Below are positions 1 to 61,047 of a stretch of 64,000 nucleotides of DNA, one piece after another. Origin of the DNA: Octopus vulgaris (lineage: Eukaryota); the NCBI GenBank assembly GCA_951406725.2, contig OX597819.1, positions 68,076,001 to 68,140,000 of the forward strand. The letters run 5' to 3'. Made by a program: the position numbers and the translations under genes. Below the pieces are notes generated by a model, which was not told the origin of the DNA, did no database searches, and saw only the letters and a program-made list of their open reading frames with translations. Numbering within the stretch: position 1 is the first letter of the stretch; each line of letters opens with the position of its first letter.

Positions 1-1690
1 TTCAAAATCGCTGGATATATTCAAAATTTCTGCTGTAATTTCAAACTTCCCGAAGTATAACATGACAGTGTAGAATAAGAATATCCAACTATACCGATCT
101 AGTGAAGTACTGACTTTAAATAATAGTAATATCAATTGTGGCAATTTTCCAAGGTGACTCACATTCACCTACAATTTTTGCATAGCTCTAATCCCTCTCA
201 CATGTGCGCTTAACAGAAAAGCCTTCTATTTTATATGGACGACTTAAATTCTATAGAAAAGACAATAATGGACTTCAAGGTTTATTACGTGTGAAAGCAT
301 TCAGTGATGATATCGATATGGAACTTGGGTTTGATAAATATGCCGAGGCCATTTTCCAGAAATGGAAATTGAAGACCTCTTATTCGGTGGTATTAGATGT
401 TGACACAATTATAGAATATCTTGAGCAGCAATAAATTTACAAATATCTCGGTATAAATTAAAACTCTCTCATTCAGCAAGCAAGCATGAAAGAGAAAATC
501 AGAAAGGAATGCTACAAGAGATTTCGAGTAGTGCTGAAATCTGAGCCATTAATTTCTTAGCAGTTCCAGTTGTTATTCATAGTTTCACTATATTTAACTG
601 GAATATCAGCGAAATAAAGAAAATTGATACGAAAATCCATAATCGGCTGACTTCCCAAAGTGAGACGCAGTTTGTCTTTACCTACGCAGAGCCCAACGGA
701 GGTCGAGGCTTGATCCAATTTGAAATCTCTTACGAAACCACCACAACTGGAGTGGCCAAATCTCTTGAAGCATCAAACGATTAAATGCTAAAACACGTTG
801 AAAACCTCAGGAGACGTAAGACGCTTCATTCTATCATGATGGCGAGCAAAAAATTGGCTAGTGAGTTCATGCATAATACCCAGGCTCAATAGCATGATGG
901 AAGTGCAGTAGGTGTTCTTGCAGAGAAGGTGAAATCAATGACAAAGAAAAACGCGTTTGAGTAATTGGCTGGTAGGTGGGGATCAAAAACTTTTGCATGG
1001 CAAATATGTGGCGCGTTGAAAACAGACGGAAGCACACCAATCAGCGGTTACGGAGCTCATGGCGAAAGACAAAGAGCAAAGATTTTATCTTAGCTGTTCA
1101 AGGTCAGAACTTATTAACCCGGAGCTACCAAGTGATGAGAAATGGAGCAGACCCAAATTGCCGTTACTGCAACGATGAGATTCAAACAAAGGACCTCTTA
1201 ATCTCTGGATGTAAGGTTTTAGCACCAGTAGAGTATAAAGCACGACATGACGGAGTTGGCCAATATCTACACAATATTTTGGTATTATGGAATCAAAACT
1301 ATTGACAAATGGTACAAGCACCCCTTTGAGGCTGTAACTGAGGGAGAAAATTTAACCAATCTTTGGAACTTTCCAGTATGTACAGACAGGACTATCAACA
1401 CTAATAAACAGGTATTGTAAAAGGCCAATACAATAAAGTCAGTTAATTGACTGGCATGAACATATCTTGTGATCATAATATCTCGACAAAAGAATTCGAT
1501 AAGCTCAGAAAATATGAAAATTTTCTGATTGAAATCGAAGAAATGTGATATCTCAAGACGATTACGATACCAGTGACTGTCGGAGCACTTGAAATGATAA
1601 AAAGGGAACTGAAGATTATTTGAGGACAATCCATGCAAGAAATGGAAAAAGTTATTTTAACTGATACGTCACACATTGAAAACATTGTCA
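1..1690 (+). mobile_element. Degenerate R4/Dong-like non-LTR retrotransposon (RT C-terminus, Zn knuckle, restriction-like endonuclease remnants)
   Basis: ORF 976-1305 reads 'FILAVQGQNLLTR...CRYC...ISGCKVLAPVEYKARHDGVGQYLH', a CCHC-knuckle plus RHD context typical of RLE-type LINEs. ORF 204-434 reads 'VKAFSDDIDMELGFDKYA'. Many stops and frameshifts; the element is cut by the window edge. Confidence 0.85.
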
Positions 1691-2427
1691 CTGTGAATTT
1701 TCTTTCCTTTTTCCCTTTTATTTTTTCATTTTTCCCTAATTTATTATATTTTTTCTTAACTTTTTCCTTTTTCTTCCTATCTTCTTACCCTTTTTTCTTC
1801 TATCACATGACTTAACGAGTCATTCGGCAAGATAGACTGTCAGAAAAGGCACCAAACTTTAAAATATGTAGTCGAGTCGATTGGTTAAGTTAAAACCCTT
1901 CGAGGCGCTGCCCTGGCATAACCATTAGACCAATGACTGAAACAAGACAAAGATTAAAGATTAAAAGACATATCACACTTTGTTACAGTTAAAGACAAAT
2001 TCATCCCGGACAAATCCAAGCGAAGGTACTTCAACACATTTCCTTCATCAACGATAACTTCAAAAAATCAAATCGTGATCTTTCTAAGTCTAGTTGTTTA
2101 ACTATAACATCTTCAGTTTTTCTAAACTAGCGCGATGCACCTTATCAATCACCATCTTGTGAACCTGTCACGCTACCTTATACACTGAATTCTATGATAG
2201 CCATCGACCAATACCGATAAAAAATTAGCAACAACGGCATCGATCTAATCATATTGGAAGGATTTCGATGGTGAAGAACATTGCTCCTTCACCTCTGTTC
2301 AATAATTAACATAACAAAAACTACAAAATACCAGCATCCCTCCATCCATCAATCAATCCATCTATCCATCTAAACATGCATACGTACACACGCACATACA
2401 TACATCCATACATATATACATACATAC

Positions 2428-2466
<39 letters not shown>

Positions 2467-2506
2467 CATACATACACACATATATATTTATATGTATGTA
2501 TGTATA

Positions 2507-2935
2507 ATCAACAATAAAGGAACGGCCATAATAGGCCATTCACCCACTAGAAATAACAGCCAAAGCTTCAACCGCAAATAAAATATCTGTTCCGTCTTGG
2601 ACTATTTCTTACTGAAGAATCTGAGGGCCTGTGGAAGATTGGCTTGATTTAATTTAATCAGGTTAGTTTACCATTAATCAGCAGATGAAACGGTATATCG
2701 TATAAGAAATTACAGGGTAAATGTTTTTTAAATTTTCTCCTGGTTTACTGAATTAACTTTTATTTGCGGTTGAAGCTTTGGCTGTTATTTCTAGTGGGTG
2801 AATGGCCTATTATGGCCGTTCCTTTATTGTTGATGTTGAACTTAAAAATGGTCTATGACTATTTTAATTTTTTCCTACTAGGCCGCTGGTGGCAAAAGAA
2901 TTCTACAAAATTTTTTTTGCCACCCTATATTGATT
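2507..2935 (+). mobile_element. Short PLE-like terminal fragment: 77-bp inverted repeat flanking a hammerhead ribozyme
   Basis: 2507-2583 is the reverse complement of 2758-2834, and a hammerhead lies between the arms. It sits in a (TACA)n/(TATG)n microsatellite. An inverted partial terminus is typical of truncated Penelope-like insertions. Confidence 0.65.
2604..2710 (+). ncRNA. Type I hammerhead ribozyme with long stem II extension
   Basis: Stem I is ATTTCTTA(2604-11)/TAAGAAAT(2703-10). Core CTGAAGA is at 2612-18. Stem II is ATCTG/CAGAT and encloses a further hairpin. GAAA is at 2687-90, stem III is CGG-tata-TCG, and the cleavage triplet is GUA (2700-2702). Confidence 0.85.
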
Positions 2936-2979
2936 AATGTATGTATGTATATATATATATGAATGTGTGTATATACATG

Positions 2980-3031
<52 letters not shown>

Positions 3032-3142
3032 ATACATCCATCGATGCATACATACATACAAACATATATACATACATGCATGCATAAATACATATGTTCG
3101 TATATACATACGAGTGTGTGCAAGTATACATATACATATACC

Positions 3143-25561: not shown

Positions 25562-27403
25562 TTAAATCCTTAAATCCTTAAAAATGTTTTAGCCCGAAGG
25601 CCGCGGCCATGCTGGGGCACCACCACTGAATGAGCTACACTAGTTTGTGAATCCACCTCTGATACGTGGCACTTGATCAACAAGGGAGTTCGATGCTGCT
25701 GCCCGCATCCGTGTCTCCTGTCGTAAGGTAGGTTCGTCTGGGACTCCCAACAAGAAGAGATCCAGTTTAGTTTTAAAGAAACCCACATCCACACCATGTA
25801 AGTCTCTCAGGAATTTAGGGAGGATGTTAAAGAGCTGTGGTCCTCTGAAACCCAAGCTGTTGCAGTATCTGGACCTGTATTTTGATGGTGACGTTTGAAT
25901 CCTTGGCACCACGCAGCGGCGCCCCGTTCTGCGGTTGGAGTAACTTTGAATGCCAAAGTTTGGGACAAGACCTTCCAGGATTTTCCAGATGTATATCACT
26001 GCATATCTCTCCCGCCTCCGCTCCAGGGAGAAGAGGTTTAATACCTTCAGTCTTTCCCAGTAGCTGACATTTTGCATTGAGACGATTTTCTTTGTGTAGC
26101 TTCTCTGAGTTGCTTCGAGTTCTGCTGTTTGTTTTATATTGTGTGGTGACCAAAGTTGGGAGCAGTAGTCCAAGCGGCTGAGGACAAATGTTTTCCATAG
26201 GACCATCAGTGTCTCCTTCTCTCTTGTTCTGAAAGTTCGGAGAATCCATCCAGCTAGCCGTCTGCATTTTATCACCAGATTAGCGATATGCATTTGGAAA
26301 GATGCATCATTGCTCATGTCAATGCCCAGGTCACGCACTGATTTTGACTCAGGGATTGCAATTCTTCCTGGGCCAGTGTATCCAGTCTTCACGTCATTTA
26401 CCTTTGTGTGCCAGTAGCGCAGGGCCTGGAACTTACCTGCATTAAACTGCATGTTGTTGTCCTCAGCCCACCTGTATATTGTGTCCAGCTCATGTTGCAG
26501 ATGCGCAATATTTTCAGGGTTTTGTATTGCGTGGGAGACTTTTGTGTCATCTGCATAGCTAGCAAGGGTGGTCATCGTAGCAACTGAAGGCATGTCTGAA
26601 AGGGCCACTATGAACATCAGTGGCCCCAAGACAGTGCCCTGTGGGACACCGCTTCTTATTTGCGTTTCCCTGGAGGTGGCTCCATTGCTCACAACTGCCT
26701 GTTTTCTGTCTTTTAGGAAGTTGTGCAGCCACTCTCCAAGTTTCCCGCCTATGCCGAGACCACGCAGTTTGTGACAGATCATACCATGGTCGGCTTTTGC
26801 AAAGTCAAGATATATTACATCCACATTTGAGCCATTTAGTAGCTGTTTCAACACCCAGTCATAGTGTTGCAGGAGCTGTGTTAGGCAGCCTCTACCTGGT
26901 CGAAATCCATGCTGGGTGTCAGACAGTAAGTCATTTTCTTCAAGGAACATGATTAGTTTCTTACGGACTATTCTTTCCATGACTTTGCTGATGTGTGAGG
27001 TCAGAGAGATAGGCCTATAATTTTTAGCATCTGCTCTGCTACCTCCCTTATGGATAGGGCATATTACCTCCTCTTTCAGTTTGACTGGGAGCTTACCACT
27101 TGCAAGAAAGCTCTGAAAAAGAAGCTGTAGCGGTTTTGCAAGGGCTCGTTTGCACGATTTGAGAAGGATCGCTGGGAATCCATCAGGTCCAGCAGCTGAG
27201 TTTGTGTCAATCTCATCAATGGCTAGTGTGATATTATCTTCTTCGATGTTGATGTACTCAATTTTTGTCTCTTTGGCCGCTGGTAAATTGGAAAAGAATT
27301 CTTCTGGGTTGTTTACTTGCCTGTGTCCTAGAGGTGTAGTGAACACACTTTGGAACTGTTCGTTCAGTATTTCACTTATCCTCGTGGGATTTCCTGTGAG
27401 AGA

Positions 27404-27408
<5 letters not shown>
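25562..27408 (-). mobile_element. 5'-truncated CR1/L2-group LINE
   Basis: RT ORF, short 3' UTR with a stem-loop, and a (TTTAAGGA)n tail at 25562-25582. Both ends abut (TA)n. Confidence 0.93.
25640..27405 (-). CDS. LINE ORF2 fragment: reverse transcriptase and C-terminal domain (no endonuclease retained)
   Basis: Motifs 'GPDG', 'NYRPISLTS', 'QHGFRPGR', 'GVPQGTVLGPLMF', 'YADDTK' and 'SLERRRER'. The ORF-track N-terminus (27406-27496) is microsatellite and flank. Confidence 0.92.
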
Positions 27409-27449
<41 letters not shown>

Positions 27450-27959
27450 AGTGGATAACATATTTTTACACACAAAGGGGAGACCATTAACGGCACTCCT
27501 AAAAAGGCCAGTTAAAACCCAAACCAAGAAAAAGAGAATTCATGAGGCATGCCGTTATAACCCTAGACTGAGCAAAGTATGAATTGGCTAATCACAAACT
27601 CGAGTTTCGATATTAATTGCCAAATAATCTAATTTGGAACCTGTCGCTCAACAGCGGAATCGCTAATTAATGAATGATTATGTAGTTGCAAATGCGTACG
27701 AAAAACACGTGCGCAAGACAACTGCATCTTTATCCATTAAGAATTCGAACTTTGTTTTCGAGTGTAATATATATATAGTCGAGCTATAAATAAAGAAATT
27801 TGAGACTGTGTCCTGTATAGCCTCAATCCTAAATATAGAGGTAATAAATTAAAATAATCTATTGCCAGTGGCTAGCATGCATAAATAAATGTCACAAAAA
27901 CATAACATATATATGTATGTATATGTATATCCATATGTATGTATGCATGTATGTATATT

Positions 27960-37401: not shown

Positions 37402-37635
37402 TGTGTGTGTGTGTACGTATAATATATATGTGTACATTTATATAAATGTATATGAATAGATATCTTCATATATACATATATACATATGTGTATATATGTA
37501 TTTATATAAGTTACAGGGACGTAAACACACCGGCATCGGTTGTCAAAACAAAGACACATAAATAGGCAGACAGAGACACACACACGCACATACACACACA
37601 TATGCACATATATACATATCTGTATGTATGTATTT

Positions 37636-37865
37636 ATTTCTTTATTGCCCTCAGGGGGCTAAACATAGAGGGGACAAACAAGGACAGACAAACGGATTAA
37701 GTCCATTACATCGACTTCAGTGATTAACGTGTACTTATTTAATCTACCCCGAAAGGATGAAAGGCAAAGTCGACGTCGGCGGAATTTGAACTCAACGTAA
37801 GGGTAGACGAAATACCGCTAGGCATTTCGCCCGGCGTGCTAACGTTTCTGCTAGCTTGCCGCCTT
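37636..37865 (-). mobile_element. SINE family B, full length
   Basis: Reverse complement of the 16282-16512 unit. Confidence 0.9.
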
Positions 37866-38293: not shown

Positions 38294-38506
38294 CTATATA
38301 TACATAAATATATATATATGTATGTATATAAGTATGTAGGTATATATGATGGCTATGCGATAAGTAGCTTGCTTACCACTCACTTGATTCAGTGTTCAGT
38401 CCCACAGCAAGGCACCACCTTGGGGCATGTGTCTTGTACTATAGCCTCGGGCCGACCAAAGACATGTGAGTAGATTTGGTAGACAGAAATTGAAAGAAGC
38501 CCGTCG

Positions 38507-38535
<29 letters not shown>

Positions 38536-38544
<9 letters not shown>

Positions 38545-38717
38545 TAAATTAGAGATAAAACCACTATTAGGCAAATCAAACAATGAAAATCATAAGCCAA
38601 TACATAGAAATAAAATTAATTAAAAAAATATAAAATATAAAATATGAAAAATATAAAATTCCAAATTAAAATATTTATATTAAAGTAAAAATTTTAAAAT
38701 GATTTAAATAATTTAAG

Positions 38718-38764
<47 letters not shown>

Positions 38765-39735
38765 TTCTCTTCATCTCTCTCACAGCCGGGCGACCACTTC
38801 CTTTCGCTTGCGGCCTCCTAACAGTGAACACGCTTTCTTCCTGCGCTCTCAAAAATCTTTCCTCGTCTAAGCCCAAAAAGGCCCTCATTGTTTGTTTTCT
38901 TGTTTGTTTTTATTTCTGTATTTTTTTGTAATTGTATTTTTATTTTGTATTTTATTTTATAATTTTATTTATATCGTTTTTACGTCCTGTTTTTGTCACA
39001 TTTTTTCCTTTCCTTGTTTTTACCCCTCTGCAAAGGAATTTTATTTAATTCTTTCGCAGGAAGGGCTAGTTCGACGAGTCGTGTTCTGTCCTTCTCTTCG
39101 AAACACGCATGGAGTCGTACTAGGGACAGCTGATGAAGGGAAATTTTCTTTGTGTTGTTTGTCTTGTACTCTGTTTTTCGTTGTTAAAAAATAGGTCCGT
39201 TTCCATGTTTGTTTTTACGTTTTCCTTTCTCGTTGTGTTCTACGTCTATTTGTGGTGTCCTGTACTCACGTATATATATATTTATATATGCATGTATATA
39301 TAAATGTAGATGTAGGTACGTACATATATGTATGTATGCATATATTTTATTTATTACACTATATATATATATTTATTATTGTTATTTTATTTTATTTATT
39401 TATTTAAATAAATAGATAAATAAATAAAATAAAATGATAATGATAGTAAATATATATATATATTTAAAATTTATAAGTTTAAATTATTTAAATAATTTTT
39501 TAATTTTTACTTTAATATAAATATTTTAATTTGGAATTTTATATTTTTTTATATTTTATATTTTATATTTTTTTAATTAATTTTATTTCTATGTATTGGC
39601 CTATGATTTTCACTGTTTGATTTGGCTAATAGTGGTTTTATCTCTAATTTAATATAATATATATTTATACTATAACATTAGATTTAATCCTAAATCTAAT
39701 TTTTCCCTGTAAGTTTGGATTTACTCCCTATTATT
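38536..39735 (+). mobile_element. Non-coding PLE-like terminal element with ~180-bp inverted repeats
   Basis: 38536-38717 is the near reverse complement of 39479-39660, and sequence continues beyond the second arm, the same layout as 2507-2935. It is inserted in the (TA)n of a SINE and carries the structured RNA at 39047-39145. Confidence 0.65.
39047..39145 (+). ncRNA. Pseudoknotted structured RNA with hammerhead core elements in non-canonical order
   Basis: Helices CGTGT/ACACG, CTGTCC/GGACAG, GAAGGG/CTCTTC, CTAGT/ACTAG and CGAC/GTCG. GAAA is at 39100-03 and CTGATGA at 39130-36. Confidence 0.55.
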
Positions 39736-55985: not shown

Positions 55986-56410
55986 ATTAGGTTATATATA
56001 CATATACATATATACCTACACACACACATATATACACACACACGTGCATACATGTATGTGTAGTCATATATATATATAAGCCTAATCGTGTTTATGTACA
56101 TCAGTAGCTCTCTTTCTCTCTCTTTCTATATATGTATGTATGTATGTATTTATGTATGTATGTATATATATACTTATATATAATATATGTCTATATCTAT
56201 CTATCTATGCATATATATATATATATATATAGATATATATATATATGGGTGTGTGTGATTGTGTATAGAAGAATATATTAATAAAAAGAATTCCAACCTT
56301 GTCTGATTTTCACGTTTTATTTACAATCTTATAATGATATATTATAAGATAATATATTATAATTGAATAAAATAAAATGAAATAGTAGAATGTTAAATAT
56401 TCATTCTGAT

Positions 56411-56455
56411 TGAACTAGTACTTTCATGCATTGAATTCTGCAATCTTCGGGTTCA
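56411..56455 (-). ncRNA. Minimal type I hammerhead variant in the 3' pLTR
   Basis: Minus strand reads TGAAC-CCGAAGA-T-TGCA-gaattcaa-TGCA-T-GAAA-GTAC-TA-GTTCA. Stem III is the palindrome AGTACT. Confidence 0.7.
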
Positions 56456-56949
56456 TGTAGTAGTGTTGACAGTCATGCTTCACAATTTTTGACTGTAGCA
56501 AGATGAGTGATTCTGTGCTATAAATACAGCTGGGTAGGCTCCAGAGTGCTAGGTTTTGCAAACTGTATTCTGACCAATCAGTGTGTAGTATCACTCAATT
56601 ACTTAAGCTGATTGGTTGGTTGAGCTGATTGGTTTAGGCATCACGCTTTGTTGGACAGGTCAAGAGTCCTGTATCTTGACCCTGGCCGAAGCAGCAATTG
56701 TTGGGTTATTTTTAGAAATGTTGTAAATATCCTTTGTCAGAGATTTTTATATTTTTATATTTCAATTGTCATCATCATCATTGTCAGCACCTTAATTATT
56801 GTTGCTAGTGGTGATGGTGGTGGCAATAGAACTTTTAACCCTAAATAAGATAATTTTCCTGCTATCTTCGTCTTGATCACCTTTAGTATTGTTGTTGTTG
56901 TTAGTGGTCATGGTCGTAGCAGTGGAAGTAATACCTCTAAGTATTATTA

Positions 56950-59277
56950 TTATTGCTTATTTAGCTTGGGTTCGAATTTATCAATAAAATTCTTTTCTCT
57001 GATTTTCCTCTCGATTTCACTTGGGCTGTGTAATTTGTAGAATGGAAATATTATATATATTTTCCGACCACATGTTGCTAGGTGGTTACTCAAAGGTATC
57101 TGACGGACCTCTGGGTCTCTAATCTGTTGCCGGAGTACACGTGAGCGTTCTAATAGTGCGTTTCCCGTCTGACCTACATATATTTCTTCACAATTTGGGC
57201 ATTTGATGCAGTAAATTAAATTTCTGCTTTTGCAGTTCATATTCGCGTTTGTGAATATTTTCCCGGTTTTTGTGTTTATATATTGACCGGTATGTATGAA
57301 TTGGCATGTGCCACATCGGCTATCATTGCATTTAGATACCGTGAATGTTTGGTCTTTGTTGCTGAGGTCAAATTTTGCCTTTGTTAGTAATGTTTTCAAG
57401 TTTTTAGGCTGTCTTTTACTAAGCACCATAGCTCGATCCTTGATTATGTCTTTTAATTCATTACTTTGGGCAATGATTGGTAGGTTTGCTTTGGCAATGT
57501 TGAAGATATTCTGGTGACATGGGTTGTGTGTCACTATGAATGGTATGACTTGTTCTTGTTTTCCTCTTCCTTGGGTTGTCCTAAGTTGTTGTATAGGTAT
57601 TTTTATAGCCCGCTGTATGCCATTTTCTATAAGTAGAGATGGGTATTTTTGTTTGAGCAAAAATTCTCTTAGTTCTATTAGGCGTTTGTTCCTGATATTT
57701 GCATCTTCTACAATAGTACAAATTCTTCTGGCTAGGCAGTATGGGATGTTACGTTTTGTATGTGGTGGATGGCACGACTTAAAATTTAGGTATTGATGTG
57801 TGTCTGTGTGTTTATAGTATATATCTGTGGTGATGGTGGTGTCTTTTTTAATTACCATTATATCCAGGAATGGTAATTTGGTACTACTCATCTCCTTTGT
57901 AAATTTGAGAGATGGGTGTAGGTTGTTCAGGAGGATATTGAACTCTTCCAGAGTATTTAGAGATTCTGTCCAGATTATGAAACAGTCGTCTAGGTATCTC
58001 TTCCATGCCTTTTCAATATACTTTCTAAATCCAGTGCCATAGTTTACCTCCACCTCTTGGTAGAGTTGTTCTTCTAAGTATCCCATTACAGAGTTGGCGT
58101 AAACGGGAGCAAACCTCGTTCCCATCGCCGTGCCTCTAATTTGGATGTAATTCTTTCCATTGAAGAAGAATGTGTTATTTTCTAGAATAAGTTTGACTGT
58201 GTCTAATATAAATGGCACTGTGAATCTGCTGGGAATCACTTCTCTATGTTTTTCTAACCAGTATTTAATCGCCTTTATTCCTAAATCGTGTGGAATATTG
58301 GTGTAGAGGCTTACCACATCAAAACTTAGCAAAACTGAATTTGTTTCTGTTGTTTTGGGAAGATGGGACAGGAAGTCGATGTCATCCCTGATGAAACTTG
58401 GTATGTAAGTACATAGTGGTTTCAAAACAATGTCAATAAAATTGCTTAGACGGTGTGTAGGGCATGCTGGACCAGCTATAATAGGTCTAAGTTTTAGGTC
58501 TTTTGGATGTAATAATTTTATGTACTCACTTTCTTGTTCTTTTACTGCCTGTTGAATGTTTTTTGATTTGTGTATTTTTGGTAAGCCGTAGAAGTTGCTG
58601 GGTTTTGGTTCAAAATTGGTGATGTAGTCTTTTTCATTATCCGTAAGTGAGTTGTGGTGTGTTGAAATCAGGTTGTTGATCTTTTTCATGATGTGGTGGT
58701 CTATATTTGCGGGTATTTCACAATAGAAGGTTGTATCCTTCAGTTGGTCTTCAACCAAATCCTTATAGTATTCGGTATCCATAATAACAATTGCACCACC
58801 TTTATCTGCTTGTTTAATTATTATTGTTTGATCGTTTTGTATACGTTTACATGCAGACATCTCTGATTTGCTAATGTTTGGCCTAACATTGGTATTGCGT
58901 CTAAGGGGAAATTTAGACAGGATATCAATGTATTGGTCAAGGTAGTTATTTCTTCCTTTTGGTGGGGTGAAATTTGATTTATTCCTTACTAGGGATTCAT
59001 CAATCTCATTACTTTTGTTAGCGAAGAATTCTACAAGTCGTAATTTTCGACAGAATTTTTGGATATCCTCCTTTAATTCTTGGTGGTTGGCTGTTGGTGT
59101 AGGTGTGAATTTCAGTCCTTTTGACAGAAGTTGGATTTCATCATTGTCAAGATCTCTTTTTGATAAATTAATTATTTTAGGATCTATACGTTCAGTTGTT
59201 TGGGGTATGTTTCCTCTTGGATTTTTTCTTTCTCCGGTGTTTGTTGTCCTGACGTAAAAAAATGGATTTTTTTCTGG
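56950..59277 (-). CDS. PLE reverse transcriptase + GIY-YIG endonuclease (frame open for 775 codons; first ATG at 58860)
   Basis: Upstream of the track ATG the frame reads 'IINLS...EIQLLSKGLKFTPTP'. Downstream motifs are 'KQADKGG', 'FYGLPKIHK', 'FDVVSLYT', 'GTAMG', 'RYLDD', 'CNDSRCGTC' and 'LIYCIKCPNCEEIYVGQT'. Confidence 0.95.
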   Translation of the reverse strand, partial: PEKNPFFYVRTTNTGERKNPRGNIPQTTERIDPKIINLSKRDLDNDEIQLLSKGLKFTPTPTANHQELKEDIQKFCRKLRLVEFFANKSNEIDESLVRNKSNFTPPKGRNNYLDQYIDILSKFPLRRNTNVRPNISKSEMSACKRIQNDQTIIIKQADKGGAIVIMDTEYYKDLVEDQLKDTTFYCEIPANIDHHIMKKINNLISTHHNSLTDNEKDYITNFEPKPSNFYGLPKIHKSKNIQQAVKEQESEYIKLLHPKDLKLRPIIAGPACPTHRLSNFIDIVLKPLCTYIPSFIRDDIDFLSHLPKTTETNSVLLSFDVVSLYTNIPHDLGIKAIKYWLEKHREVIPSRFTVPFILDTVKLILENNTFFFNGKNYIQIRGTAMGTRFAPVYANSVMGYLEEQLYQEVEVNYGTGFRKYIEKAWKRYLDDCFIIWTESLNTLEEFNILLNNLHPSLKFTKEMSSTKLPFLDIMVIKKDTTITTDIYYKHTDTHQYLNFKSCHPPHTKRNIPYCLARRICTIVEDANIRNKRLIELREFLLKQKYPSLLIENGIQRAIKIPIQQLRTTQGRGKQEQVIPFIVTHNPCHQNIFNIAKANLPIIAQSNELKDIIKDRAMVLSKRQPKNLKTLLTKAKFDLSNKDQTFTVSKCNDSRCGTCQFIHTGQYINTKTGKIFTNANMNCKSRNLIYCIKCPNCEEIYVGQTGNALLERSRVLRQQIRDPEVRQIPLSNHLATCGRKIYIIFPFYKLHSPSEIERKIREKNFIDKFEPKLNKQ

Positions 59278-60476
59278 TTATGATTTATATTTCTGTTGAT
59301 GTTTGCTTGATGAATTTTGCGTTTTGGTTGTGGTACTTTACTTGGTTTCGTTATGTTTTCTGTCTTGTTTTTGGTATTATGTATGCTACTTTTCAATTTC
59401 TTGTTAGCATTGTTTTTAACCACCTGGAGAAATGATCTGGGTTTACTTCTAGATCTAGATCGGTTTTTTGTCCAGTTTCTTGTGGGTAATCTCTGTTGAG
59501 GTCTTGAAAATGATCTCCTGTTATTTCTACTGCTAATGGTCTGTTCAAAACAATATCTATTTTGTTTGTGCTTTTTGTTCATGTTGTGTGCATTAGGGTG
59601 TTTGCATACAAAATGGGAAGAGTTCTTACCGTAGTTCGTCTTCGATTCGTGGTGAAACGGGTGTTCATGTTGCCACGTGTTCTGGTGTATGTTGCGTTGG
59701 TGAGGTTGTCCACTTTTAATGCTATTTCTCGGAGTTCTGGTGTCTTTACCGTAATTTGTAGCATATTTGTCGAGAAATAATTGTTTCCGCTGCCAAAACT
59801 TTCTTGATCTGCTTTCTTCTTTTGAGATATCTCTGATCCATAGTTCTCGCATTTTTTCTGCTATATTGCCGGTCGTTAGTTTGGATATTTCATCTCTGAT
59901 TTGATCATCGATAGCTTCGTATTTGGCTTTGTAGCGGGATTGTTTAGACAGGGTAATGGAGATGTCGGTCCTGAATTTTATCAAACTAAGGTCCCATCGA
60001 AGTTTAGTTTCTTCCTCTGGTTCTCCTGCAATTTCTTTAATTAGGTACTTCCGAGGAAGTATGGGTGCCGCTAAAGATATCCATTTCGAATGTATTTCAG
60101 CATATTTTTCGCATTTATATGCCTTCCAGAAGTTTTGTTTTCTTATGTTAAGGAGTTTTTTCCATGTCTTCTGTATCTCTTCTCTTTTTCGGTGTGCCTC
60201 TTTTTCCAGATTTCTTTCGTTTATTTCTGACATCCAAGGAGGTTGTGGTAGGCTTTCTCTTGTAGATTTTATAATTGTTGGTATCATTTCAGCTAAATTC
60301 TTAATTTCAGAGTTTATGTGTTCATTTCCAAGTTTTCCGTCTGTAGACTGTTTTTCTATTTCCTTTAAAATAGAGGATTGTGTGTCAATCATCGTGATGA
60401 GTGTTGATAATTTCGATGAAATTTCCATTAGAATTCTTTCGGATTCTGTTAATTTTGTTTGTTGCTTTCCAGACAT
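59184..60476 (-). CDS. PLE ORF1, 430 aa: helical charged N-terminal part and basic, low-complexity C-terminal part; function unknown
   Basis: Uninterrupted 1.3-kb ORF starting at gccaacATG about 20 nt downstream of the 5' pLTR. It has an RSRSRS/K-rich tail. Confidence 0.8.
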   Translation of the reverse strand: MSGKQQTKLTESERILMEISSKLSTLITMIDTQSSILKEIEKQSTDGKLGNEHINSEIKNLAEMIPTIIKSTRESLPQPPWMSEINERNLEKEAHRKREEIQKTWKKLLNIRKQNFWKAYKCEKYAEIHSKWISLAAPILPRKYLIKEIAGEPEEETKLRWDLSLIKFRTDISITLSKQSRYKAKYEAIDDQIRDEISKLTTGNIAEKMRELWIRDISKEESRSRKFWQRKQLFLDKYATNYGKDTRTPRNSIKSGQPHQRNIHQNTWQHEHPFHHESKTNYGKNSSHFVCKHPNAHNMNKKHKQNRYCFEQTISSRNNRRSFSRPQQRLPTRNWTKNRSRSRSKPRSFLQVVKNNANKKLKSSIHNTKNKTENITKPSKVPQPKRKIHQANINRNINHNQKKIHFFTSGQQTPEKEKIQEETYPKQLNV

Positions 60477-60681
60477 GTTGGCATATACACAATAGGAATA
60501 TAGATATATATATATATGGGTGTGTGTGATTGTGTATAGAAGAATATATTAATAAAAAGAATTCCAACCTTGTCTGATTTTCACGTTTTATTTACAATCT
60601 TATAATGATATATTATAAGATAATATATTATAATTGAATAAAATAAAATGAAATAGTAGAATGTTAAATATTCATTCTGAT

Positions 60682-60726
60682 TGAACTAGTACTTTCATGC
60701 ATTGAATTCTGCAATCTTCGGGTTCA
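60682..60726 (-). ncRNA. Minimal type I hammerhead variant in the 5' pLTR
   Basis: Identical to 56411-56455. Confidence 0.7.
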
Positions 60727-60759
60727 TGTAGTAGTGTTGACAGTCATGCTTCACAATTT

Positions 60760-60905
60760 TTGACTGTAGCAAGATGAGTGATTCTGTGCTATAAATACAG
60801 CTGGGTAGGCTCCAGAGTGCTAGGTTTTGCAAACTGTATTCTGACCAATCAGTGTGTAGTATCACTCAATTACTTAAGCTGATTGGTTGGTTGAGCTGAT
60901 TGGTT
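60760..60905 (-). promoter_or_regulatory. Candidate Pol II promoter in the pLTR (duplicated at 56489-56634)
   Basis: Three CCAAT boxes (60845-49, 60882-86, 60899-903), TATTTATA at 60797-60790, and an Inr-like ACAGTC about 32 nt downstream (60767-62). The orientation points toward ORF1. Confidence 0.6.
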
Positions 60906-60976
60906 TAGGCATCACGCTTTGTTGGACAGGTCAAGAGTCCTGTATCTTGACCCTGGCCGAAGCAGCAATTGTTGGG

Positions 60977-61047
<71 letters not shown>

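Follow-up and report, generated by a model that had tools for sequence, protein, structure and literature searches.

We consider it probable that a motif near the 3' end of a non-coding Penelope-like unit in the Octopus vulgaris genome is a hammerhead ribozyme in a four-strand, non-circular permutation, predicted to cut its own RNA in cis between positions 39085 and 39086 of the window (the whole 64,000-nucleotide stretch of DNA analysed). The strand order as such has already been published; the recruitment of stem II from a fourth, upstream strand, which recurs in five unrelated families, appears to be new. The window copy belongs to one of these groups, family A, and comprises the following features.

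38740..39372, + strand: 5'-truncated repeat copy, corresponding to positions 179-804 of a non-coding Penelope-like unit of ~794 nt (93% identity)
39023..39027, + strand: 5' strand of helix X (CCCCT), partner of 39137-41, assigned from the pairing in the alignment and from its recurrence with a different sequence in families B, C, D and F
39028..39059, + strand: hairpin H, with arms 39028-40 and 39047-59 and no linker to helix X or stem II
39060..39064, + strand: upstream-supplied 5' strand of stem II, partner of 39095-99
39066..39075, + strand: 5' strand of helix P4, which prolongs stem III across an internal loop
39080..39091, + strand: block S (CGTG-T-T-CTGTCC), with a stem III strand (39080-84), H17 (39085) and a stem I strand (39086-91); GUU triplet, predicted cut 39085/39086
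39092..39107, + strand: block G stretch, with a 3-nt linker, the stem II 3' strand (39095-99), GAAA (39100-03) and the stem III 3' strand up to 39107; 39094-107 reads CTCTTC-GAAA-CACG
39114..39123, + strand: 3' strand of helix P4, abutting stem I
39124..39136, + strand: stem I 3' strand GGACAG and core CUGAUGA (C3-A9 = 39130-36); 39124-40 reads GGACAG-CTGATGA-AGGG
39137..39141, + strand: 3' strand of helix X, AGGGG in family A and AGGGA in the window copy

The three hammerhead strands described in the earlier note are all present, with stem I (39086-91/39124-29) and stem III (39080-84/39103-07) in register, and so are two further pairings it had listed, GAAGGG (39060-65) with CTCTTC and CTAGTTCGAC (39066-75) with GTCGTACTAG (39114-23), the latter forming P4. 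It had also rightly judged canonical stem II to be weak; the likely partner is GAAGG(G) at 39060-65, which places G10.1 at G39060 opposite C11.1 at 39099. Helix X (39023-27/39137-41) and the full hairpin H (39028-59) are additions to that description. The CUGANGA and GAAA elements and an NUH site with the A15.1-U16.1 pair are all found, and the core is intact in 15/25 copies picked by their 5' end. The strands of the different families follow a common order: X - H - II 5' - P4 - III - H17 - I - short linker - II 3' - GAAA - III' - P4' - I' - CUGANGA - X', with a linker of 1-5 nt between stems I and II. The window copy carries private changes at 39094, 39095, 39141 and 39149 relative to its family, among which that at 39141 (AGGGA) weakens helix X; because of these changes, this particular copy is likely to be slower or dead as a ribozyme.

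Hammerheads of types I, II and III have the orders CGS, GSC or SCG and lack a core pseudoknot, whereas the order here is S-G-C, so that the earlier classification of the motif as a pseudoknotted hammerhead outside these types holds, in line with the lack of an Rfam hammerhead match. More generally, no Rfam family matched the motif at its gathering score, and the 18 weak E-value matches within 38600-39600 do not include any ribozyme family. A GAAA-then-CUGANGA pattern occurs once in the window, compared with 0.03 expected occurrences and a hit in 3/100 shuffles. Across the 2.8-Gb genome, the site-GAAA-CUGAUGA pattern yielded 7182 matches versus 672 for a reversed control, and the pattern with other N7 letters 7409 versus 1555. 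The core letters and, in part, C11.1 of the copies described below were imposed by the search patterns used to collect them.

The earlier note had called for a comparison of genomic copies and a covariation check. In an alignment of 31 family A copies, chosen as complete and from across subfamilies, 92.1% of the cells of a 35-pair model are paired, and double changes occur in 25 of the 35 pairs. None of 500 shuffles scored as high, although the copies are related and shuffle counts are thus not probabilities, and slid controls reached only 39-44% pairing. Among the helices contributed by upstream strands, helix X is paired in 92% of cells (changes on both sides in 2/5 pairs), the four-pair base of hairpin H in 97.6% (3/4 pairs with double changes) and upstream stem II in 98.7% (3/5), its first pair being G-C in 31/31 copies. 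P4 (helices 4-5) reaches 77-86%, with double changes in 9/10 pairs, stem III 96.8% (3/5) and stem I 93% (5/6). Canonical stem II can also be drawn with one extra A (GGGG/CUUC), in which case 95.2% of its cells are paired in the 31 copies; half of these pairs are G-U, only one of the four has changed on both sides, and a score this good is reached in 32-72 of 500 shuffles. Its register without an extra nucleotide, with A10.1 opposite C11.1, was rejected, given that this position is unpaired in 31/31 copies. Family A by itself is therefore suggestive, leaving the choice between upstream and canonical stem II undecided.

The pseudoknot-free minimum free energy structure of a typical family A copy (L015) consists of exactly X, H, P4 and III, with the strands of stems I and II left free. 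A family F copy behaves similarly and a family C copy forms X and III but an alternative H, whereas the structures of family B, family D and window copies differ from the model in this pseudoknot-free calculation. The earlier note had envisaged a conformational switch operated by CTTTCGCAG (39051-59). This segment instead forms the 3' arm of hairpin H, a constant element of the junction with a pair probability of 0.97-0.99, and families B, C, D and F have unrelated letters in the corresponding arm; a switch of this kind was therefore rejected as unsupported.

Pattern searches returned families A, B, C, D and F together with smaller ones, all with unrelated helix sequences; in 110 loci, the core occurs together with stems I and III 86 times, and 83 of these instances are distinct. 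Canonical stem II comprises at most 1 bp in 10/11 B, 4/4 C and 5/5 F copies (19/20). A four-way junction could be parsed in 66/83 rows, with a shuffle p of 0.05 or less in 57, although family A copies, related to one another, make up the bulk of the rows. In the other 17/83, among them every C row (4) and every F row (5), the strict parser found no such junction, and the C and F junctions rest on majority rows, which were derived from the closest copies (25 F, 20 C and 20 D), and on single intact copies. The majority rows of F, C and D each show an upstream stem II of six Watson-Crick pairs (GGCTGG/CCAGCC, GGGGCC/GGCCCC and GACACC/GGTGTC, respectively) as well as a helix X directly after A9 (TTTCTT/AAGAAA, GGGG/CCCC and CCA/TGG). 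In all three, X, H and II are joined without a linker, the first stem II pair is always G-C and the first X pair varies, such that the G10.1-C11.1 pair of a hammerhead stem II is provided through the upstream strand. Single B copies have private changes, and their upstream stem II comprises only 2-4 bp, no better than in shuffles (p 0.15-0.99). As far as the sequences go, this cross-family comparison decides for upstream stem II. Our reading is that the cyclic order S-G-C is kept and all three inter-block links are covalent, the chain being opened inside the core at A9/G10.1. The predicted four-way junction at this site, which joins X, hairpin H and stem II to the core without linkers, appears to be new.

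The order of the strands itself, which the earlier note had given as A-C-B and regarded as a new topology, is that of type SGC described by Eckert et al. (2023; PMC10085705), a form that cleaves in vitro. According to the sections of that article available to us, hammerheads are built from blocks S, G and C in six orders, with block C assumed to be uninterruptible. Type SGC is reported there to cleave at 0.007-0.19 per min and to be known from metatranscriptomes, with no example in the genome of a known organism; type CSG, represented by two metagenomic sequences, likewise cleaves in vitro. The octopus form shares with type SGC (HRIMA-1 and its variant) the succession of site, GAAA and CUGANGA, the two core pseudoknots, all core nucleotides and the short linker between stems I and II, which is typically 3 nt in the published type and 1-5 nt in the octopus families. 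However, stem II of type SGC, as depicted in these sections, uses the strand right after CUGAnGA(U), and a helix representing an interaction of stems I and II closes round block C, whereas octopus stem II takes its strand from upstream, A9 runs into helix X and P4 prolongs stem III up to stem I. Block C appears to be interrupted, as reflected in the 19/20 B, C and F copies lacking a canonical stem II of more than 1 bp, and its flanks pair with upstream segments (P4 and X) rather than with each other. The hosts differ as well, comprising animal retroelements for the octopus form and metatranscriptomes for type SGC. Type CSG, in the same source, shares the cyclic order S-G-C and the placement of the stem II 5' strand before block S, but it is opened between blocks G and C, whereas the octopus form is opened inside block C at A9/G10.1. 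The search pattern given there (CUGAUGAG or CUGAUGAUG) cannot match a split core.

Other relatives share fewer features. From what is accessible of the reports on type I hammerheads of Penelope-like elements (PLEs) and on non-LTR retrozymes (PMC4209133; bioRxiv 10.64898/2026.07.22.740005), these systems and the octopus form have in common a site near the 3' end, non-coding tandem units within 51-972 bp and a proposed role in cutting precursor RNA. PLE hammerheads, however, belong to type I and form three-way junctions, in many cases with a stem III that is short and palindromic and needs a dimer, whereas the octopus form is pseudoknotted, four-stranded and complete as a monomer. They commonly have an extra nucleotide at A9/G10.1 (PMC4209133, in the sections consulted), as does HRIMA-1, and this position is therefore known to tolerate a bulge. 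The PK (pistol-like) hammerhead (PMC11300833, as excerpted) resembles the octopus form in that its core is backed by a pseudoknot and a fourth helix, but its A9 and G10.1 are contiguous, with a short stem whose loop forms the pseudoknot, and its block order and junction differ. Hammerhead variants with additional helices or other permutations are mentioned in the available part of PMC13725137, and the excerpted bioRxiv report deals with type I hammerheads only. The literature searched, mostly open-access, did not reveal any split-core architecture or any permuted hammerhead in Naiads or octopus.

The location of the motif in a PLE-like terminus, proposed in the earlier note, was supported: the host is a 5'-truncated copy of a Penelope-like unit with (TA)n at its end. 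Of 2078 candidate copies, the 40 that were scored share 95-96% identity with the window motif, giving at least 40 close copies, and family A was also detected in assembled contigs of four sequencing runs (organisms coded A-D). Its copies are 5'-truncated or form partial head-to-tail tandems and inversions, with a 67-nt tail and (TA)n ends. They thus show the (TA)n targeting, 5' truncation, partial tandem and inverted copies and short 3' tail that the consulted parts of Craig et al. (2021; PMC8557442) describe for Naiad PLEs, and because of this match to PLE hallmarks we regard the unit as Penelope-like. The 794-nt unit lacks any open reading frame, and hence the GIY-YIG and reverse transcriptase (RT) frame of an autonomous PLE. 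None of 25 loci selected by the unit's 5' end revealed a longer element in common, and no autonomous partner emerged from a search for reading frames upstream of the copies. Being without a reading frame, family A is at most a non-autonomous Naiad dependant. It has the tandem units of a non-LTR retrozyme but not the type I hammerhead.

Several other elements are found in its neighbourhood. A near-complete PLE on the minus strand (56274-60982) has RT and C-terminal GIY-YIG-type motifs (RVT_1, E 2e-6), encoded in the frameshifted reading frames 59184-60548 and 56950-59277, and two pLTRs of ~450 nt, each with a minimal type I hammerhead in degenerate form, its core reading CCGAAGA and its palindromic stem III GTAC. 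We considered this element as the partner of family A and rejected it, because its pLTRs carry this degenerate type I motif of their own. A 3' piece of it with 99% identity lies tail-to-tail with a family A copy in another locus (L010), which looks like shared (TA)n targeting. The ribozyme-bearing copy is flanked by a 199-bp AT-rich inverted repeat (38523-38719 and 39476-39674; 94% identity), which may be an inverted target duplication or a separate small element. A LINE-type RT reading frame on the minus strand (25640-27511; RVT_1, E 6e-23) has many relatives in the loci examined, and the repeats at 37630-37865 and 38345-38505, which we take to be SINE-like, are common there as well.

The other families point to autonomous hosts. 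Family D is nearly identical to the consensi of Naiad_Obim and Naiad_Ovul at their 3' ends, as given in the part of the supplement of Craig et al. (2021; PMC8557442) that we consulted, and a Naiad-type RT lies upstream of one of its copies (L429; RVT_1, E 2e-4, below the curated cut-off). The corresponding part of the article describes Naiads as devoid of canonical hammerheads, with eight flagged as HHR_half_core. Reading by eye a subset of the 54 elements in that supplement, we recognised the split-core fold in the octopus Naiad consensus, in three Acropora Naiads (X GTAACTGT/ACAGTTGC, II GGCTCC/GGAGCC), in Naiad_EuTe from the clam shrimp Eulimnadia (X GGGG/CCCC, II GACGCC/GGCGTC) and in one Morbakka Naiad (X AGAGG/CCTCT, II GGCCCC/GGGGCC), although which of the two Morbakka elements bears it follows only from the file order. 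Several nematode Naiads (Nippostrongylus, Haemonchus, Heligmosomoides, Pristionchus) appeared by eye to have a type-CSG hammerhead at their ends, in which a helix encloses block C, and no such motif was seen in the passages of Naiad_Ppla and bivalve Naiads inspected in this way. The split-core fold is likely to be the ribozyme that Naiad-type retroelements were considered to lack.

The hosts of families B and C are different. Here, the motif occurs once per 3' UTR, ~20 and ~270 nt, respectively, past the stop codon of LINE-type reading frames that close with a zinc knuckle and motifs of a restriction-like endonuclease, and ~115 nt of element follow the predicted cut; to judge by these motifs, the elements presumably belong to the HERO/RLE group. 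The family C protein piece did not match any Pfam family or, below E 1, any solved structure; zf-RVT-containing clusters in Atlas provide a weak lead. Copies of this family (L136-L155) are 99% identical, which points to recent activity, and several lie in ~8-kb segmental repeats (C29, 18.63-18.65 and 20.69-20.70 Mb). Family B (L033-L057) is strikingly similar to the Morbakka Naiad ribozyme, as given in the consulted part of the supplement, over blocks S, G and C, which suggests a putative exchange of modules between retroelement classes. Scans of metagenome and viral contigs were less productive: 2/239 loci among the matches listed passed for stems I and III, neither with a clear four-way junction. 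One metagenome contig (L191; Ga0164297_10044655) contains an S-G-C motif with a 6-bp stem I, a 4-bp stem III and no clear stem II of either kind. A chance match of the pattern (L099) lies in a locus with an intron-less 531-aa reading frame for an ABCE1/RLI-like ABC ATPase (1446-3038, +), a possible retrocopy.

The ends of truncated copies may provide a view of the motif's activity, since reverse transcription of cut RNA should leave copies whose start lies at the cut or slightly past it. Copies with a (TA)n junction at most 30 nt ahead of the 3' strand of stem II were collected, and distinct loci were counted manually among the first 100 matches listed, all on one chromosome; the samples are small, and the view is limited in the 3' direction. 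Upstream pieces of partial tandems were left aside, their starts being confounded with length decay. In the family A group, 20 of the 25 loci among these matches start at +1 to +10 relative to the predicted cut and 5 at -1 to -20 (binomial p 2.3e-6 versus a uniform distribution). For family F, 20/24 of the loci listed start at +1 to +12, including 5 exactly at +1, and 4 lie upstream (p 9.7e-6 and 8.9e-4), with none at -1 to -8. Many family A junctions fall on TA-like spots at +7 to +10, and TA microhomology could favour some of them. Taken together, 5' ends just past the predicted cut suggest cleavage in vivo.

Several alternative explanations need to be weighed against cleavage by a split-core hammerhead. 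The best of them, though still improbable, holds that family A contains an ordinary type-SGC ribozyme, with GGGG (after CUGAUGA-A) pairing with CUUC as stem II and the upstream helices forming an inactive storage fold. The extra-A register with its 95.2% pairing and a G-C pair kept beside the core is compatible with this idea, as is the occurrence of a single extra nucleotide at A9/G10.1 in HRIMA-1 and PLE hammerheads, where it is usual according to the accessible parts of PMC10085705 and PMC4209133; moreover, UU is found at the extra-nucleotide spot after the CUGAUGA block in two copies. The abundance of G-U pairs, the single doubly changed position and the shuffles that match this helix speak against it, and so does the lack of a helix enclosing the CUGAUGA block, the feature by which published SGC ribozymes are defined. 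A plain SGC stem II is impossible in families B, C and F, and equally so in the Naiads of corals, jellyfish and clam shrimp in the supplement subset, all of which share the remaining architecture.

Slightly less probable in our view is a conserved, non-cleaving 3' structure of hammerhead origin, for instance a signal for RT binding or pausing, with the 5' ends arising from pausing and TA microhomology. Such a structure would accommodate the full-length copies that read through the site, and hence the many templates left uncut, the TA-like junctions of family A and the fact that a cut in families B and C would part the reading frame from the last ~115 nt. Yet CUGANGA, CGAAA, NUH and G10.1-C11.1 persist over unrelated families and four phyla-level lineages while the helix letters change, and the family F junctions listed include 5/24 at exactly +1 and none at -1 to -8. 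Assembly in trans, or through dimers formed by tandem units, which the earlier note had entertained, has the lowest standing of the three and is very unlikely. Copies do exist as partial tandems and inversions, and minimal PLE hammerheads have been proposed to act as dimers (PMC4209133, in the sections consulted), but all helices, including the long, non-palindromic stem III and P4, close within one copy, making such assembly unnecessary, and families B and C carry their motif singly in LINE-type 3' UTRs.

For a split-core ribozyme acting in cis, H, P4/stem III and X would form a nested scaffold, to which stems I and II would be added as two pseudoknots. Judging from the known core structure, X may stack on H and stem II on the A9-G12 pair, and the four-way junction would substitute for the A9-to-G10.1 link of the normal core. 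The split core would be complete only after its last strands have been transcribed. Cleavage may free the element RNA from upstream or tandem co-transcripts or release unit-length monomers, which may circularise, a role also put forward for PLE hammerheads (PMC4209133). A Naiad-type reverse transcriptase/endonuclease acting in trans could then copy these RNAs into (TA)n sites, such that cut RNAs would give rise to copies starting just past the site and uncut, re-ligated or circular RNAs to longer and partial-tandem copies. Since the genomic 3' ends of family A lie 260-330 nt beyond the predicted cut and many copies read through it, cleavage would have to be incomplete, reversible or bypassed on circles. 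In the LINE families B and C, the cut would detach the 3' end, although the two pieces would stay paired via X, II, P4 and III.

On balance, we lean towards a broader conclusion, held with less confidence than the fold and cut site themselves: that this motif represents a seventh natural hammerhead architecture, whose core is opened at A9/G10.1 and rebuilt via a perfect four-way junction and two pseudoknots; that it is active as a monomer in vivo; that it serves as the ribozyme of many Naiads, from corals to crustaceans and cephalopods, with thousands to ten thousand or more copies in the genome; and that unrelated RLE-type LINEs have taken it up as a module of their 3' UTR. A break at A9/G10.1 is excluded by the published six-permutation scheme, which, in the sections available to us, treats the CUGAnGA block as unbreakable (Eckert et al., 2023; PMC10085705). 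A natural form broken at this point would widen the rules for the best-studied small ribozyme and offer a new two-helix port for engineering, and it would bring non-circular permutations, known almost only from metatranscriptomes, into animal chromosomes at high copy number. It would also provide a testable answer to the apparent absence of hammerheads from Naiads, namely that the descriptors used are blind to the split-core form, a question that bears on self-cleavage as part of Penelope-type transposition. Finally, the clustering of 5' ends may serve as a genomic read-out of ribozyme activity in vivo.
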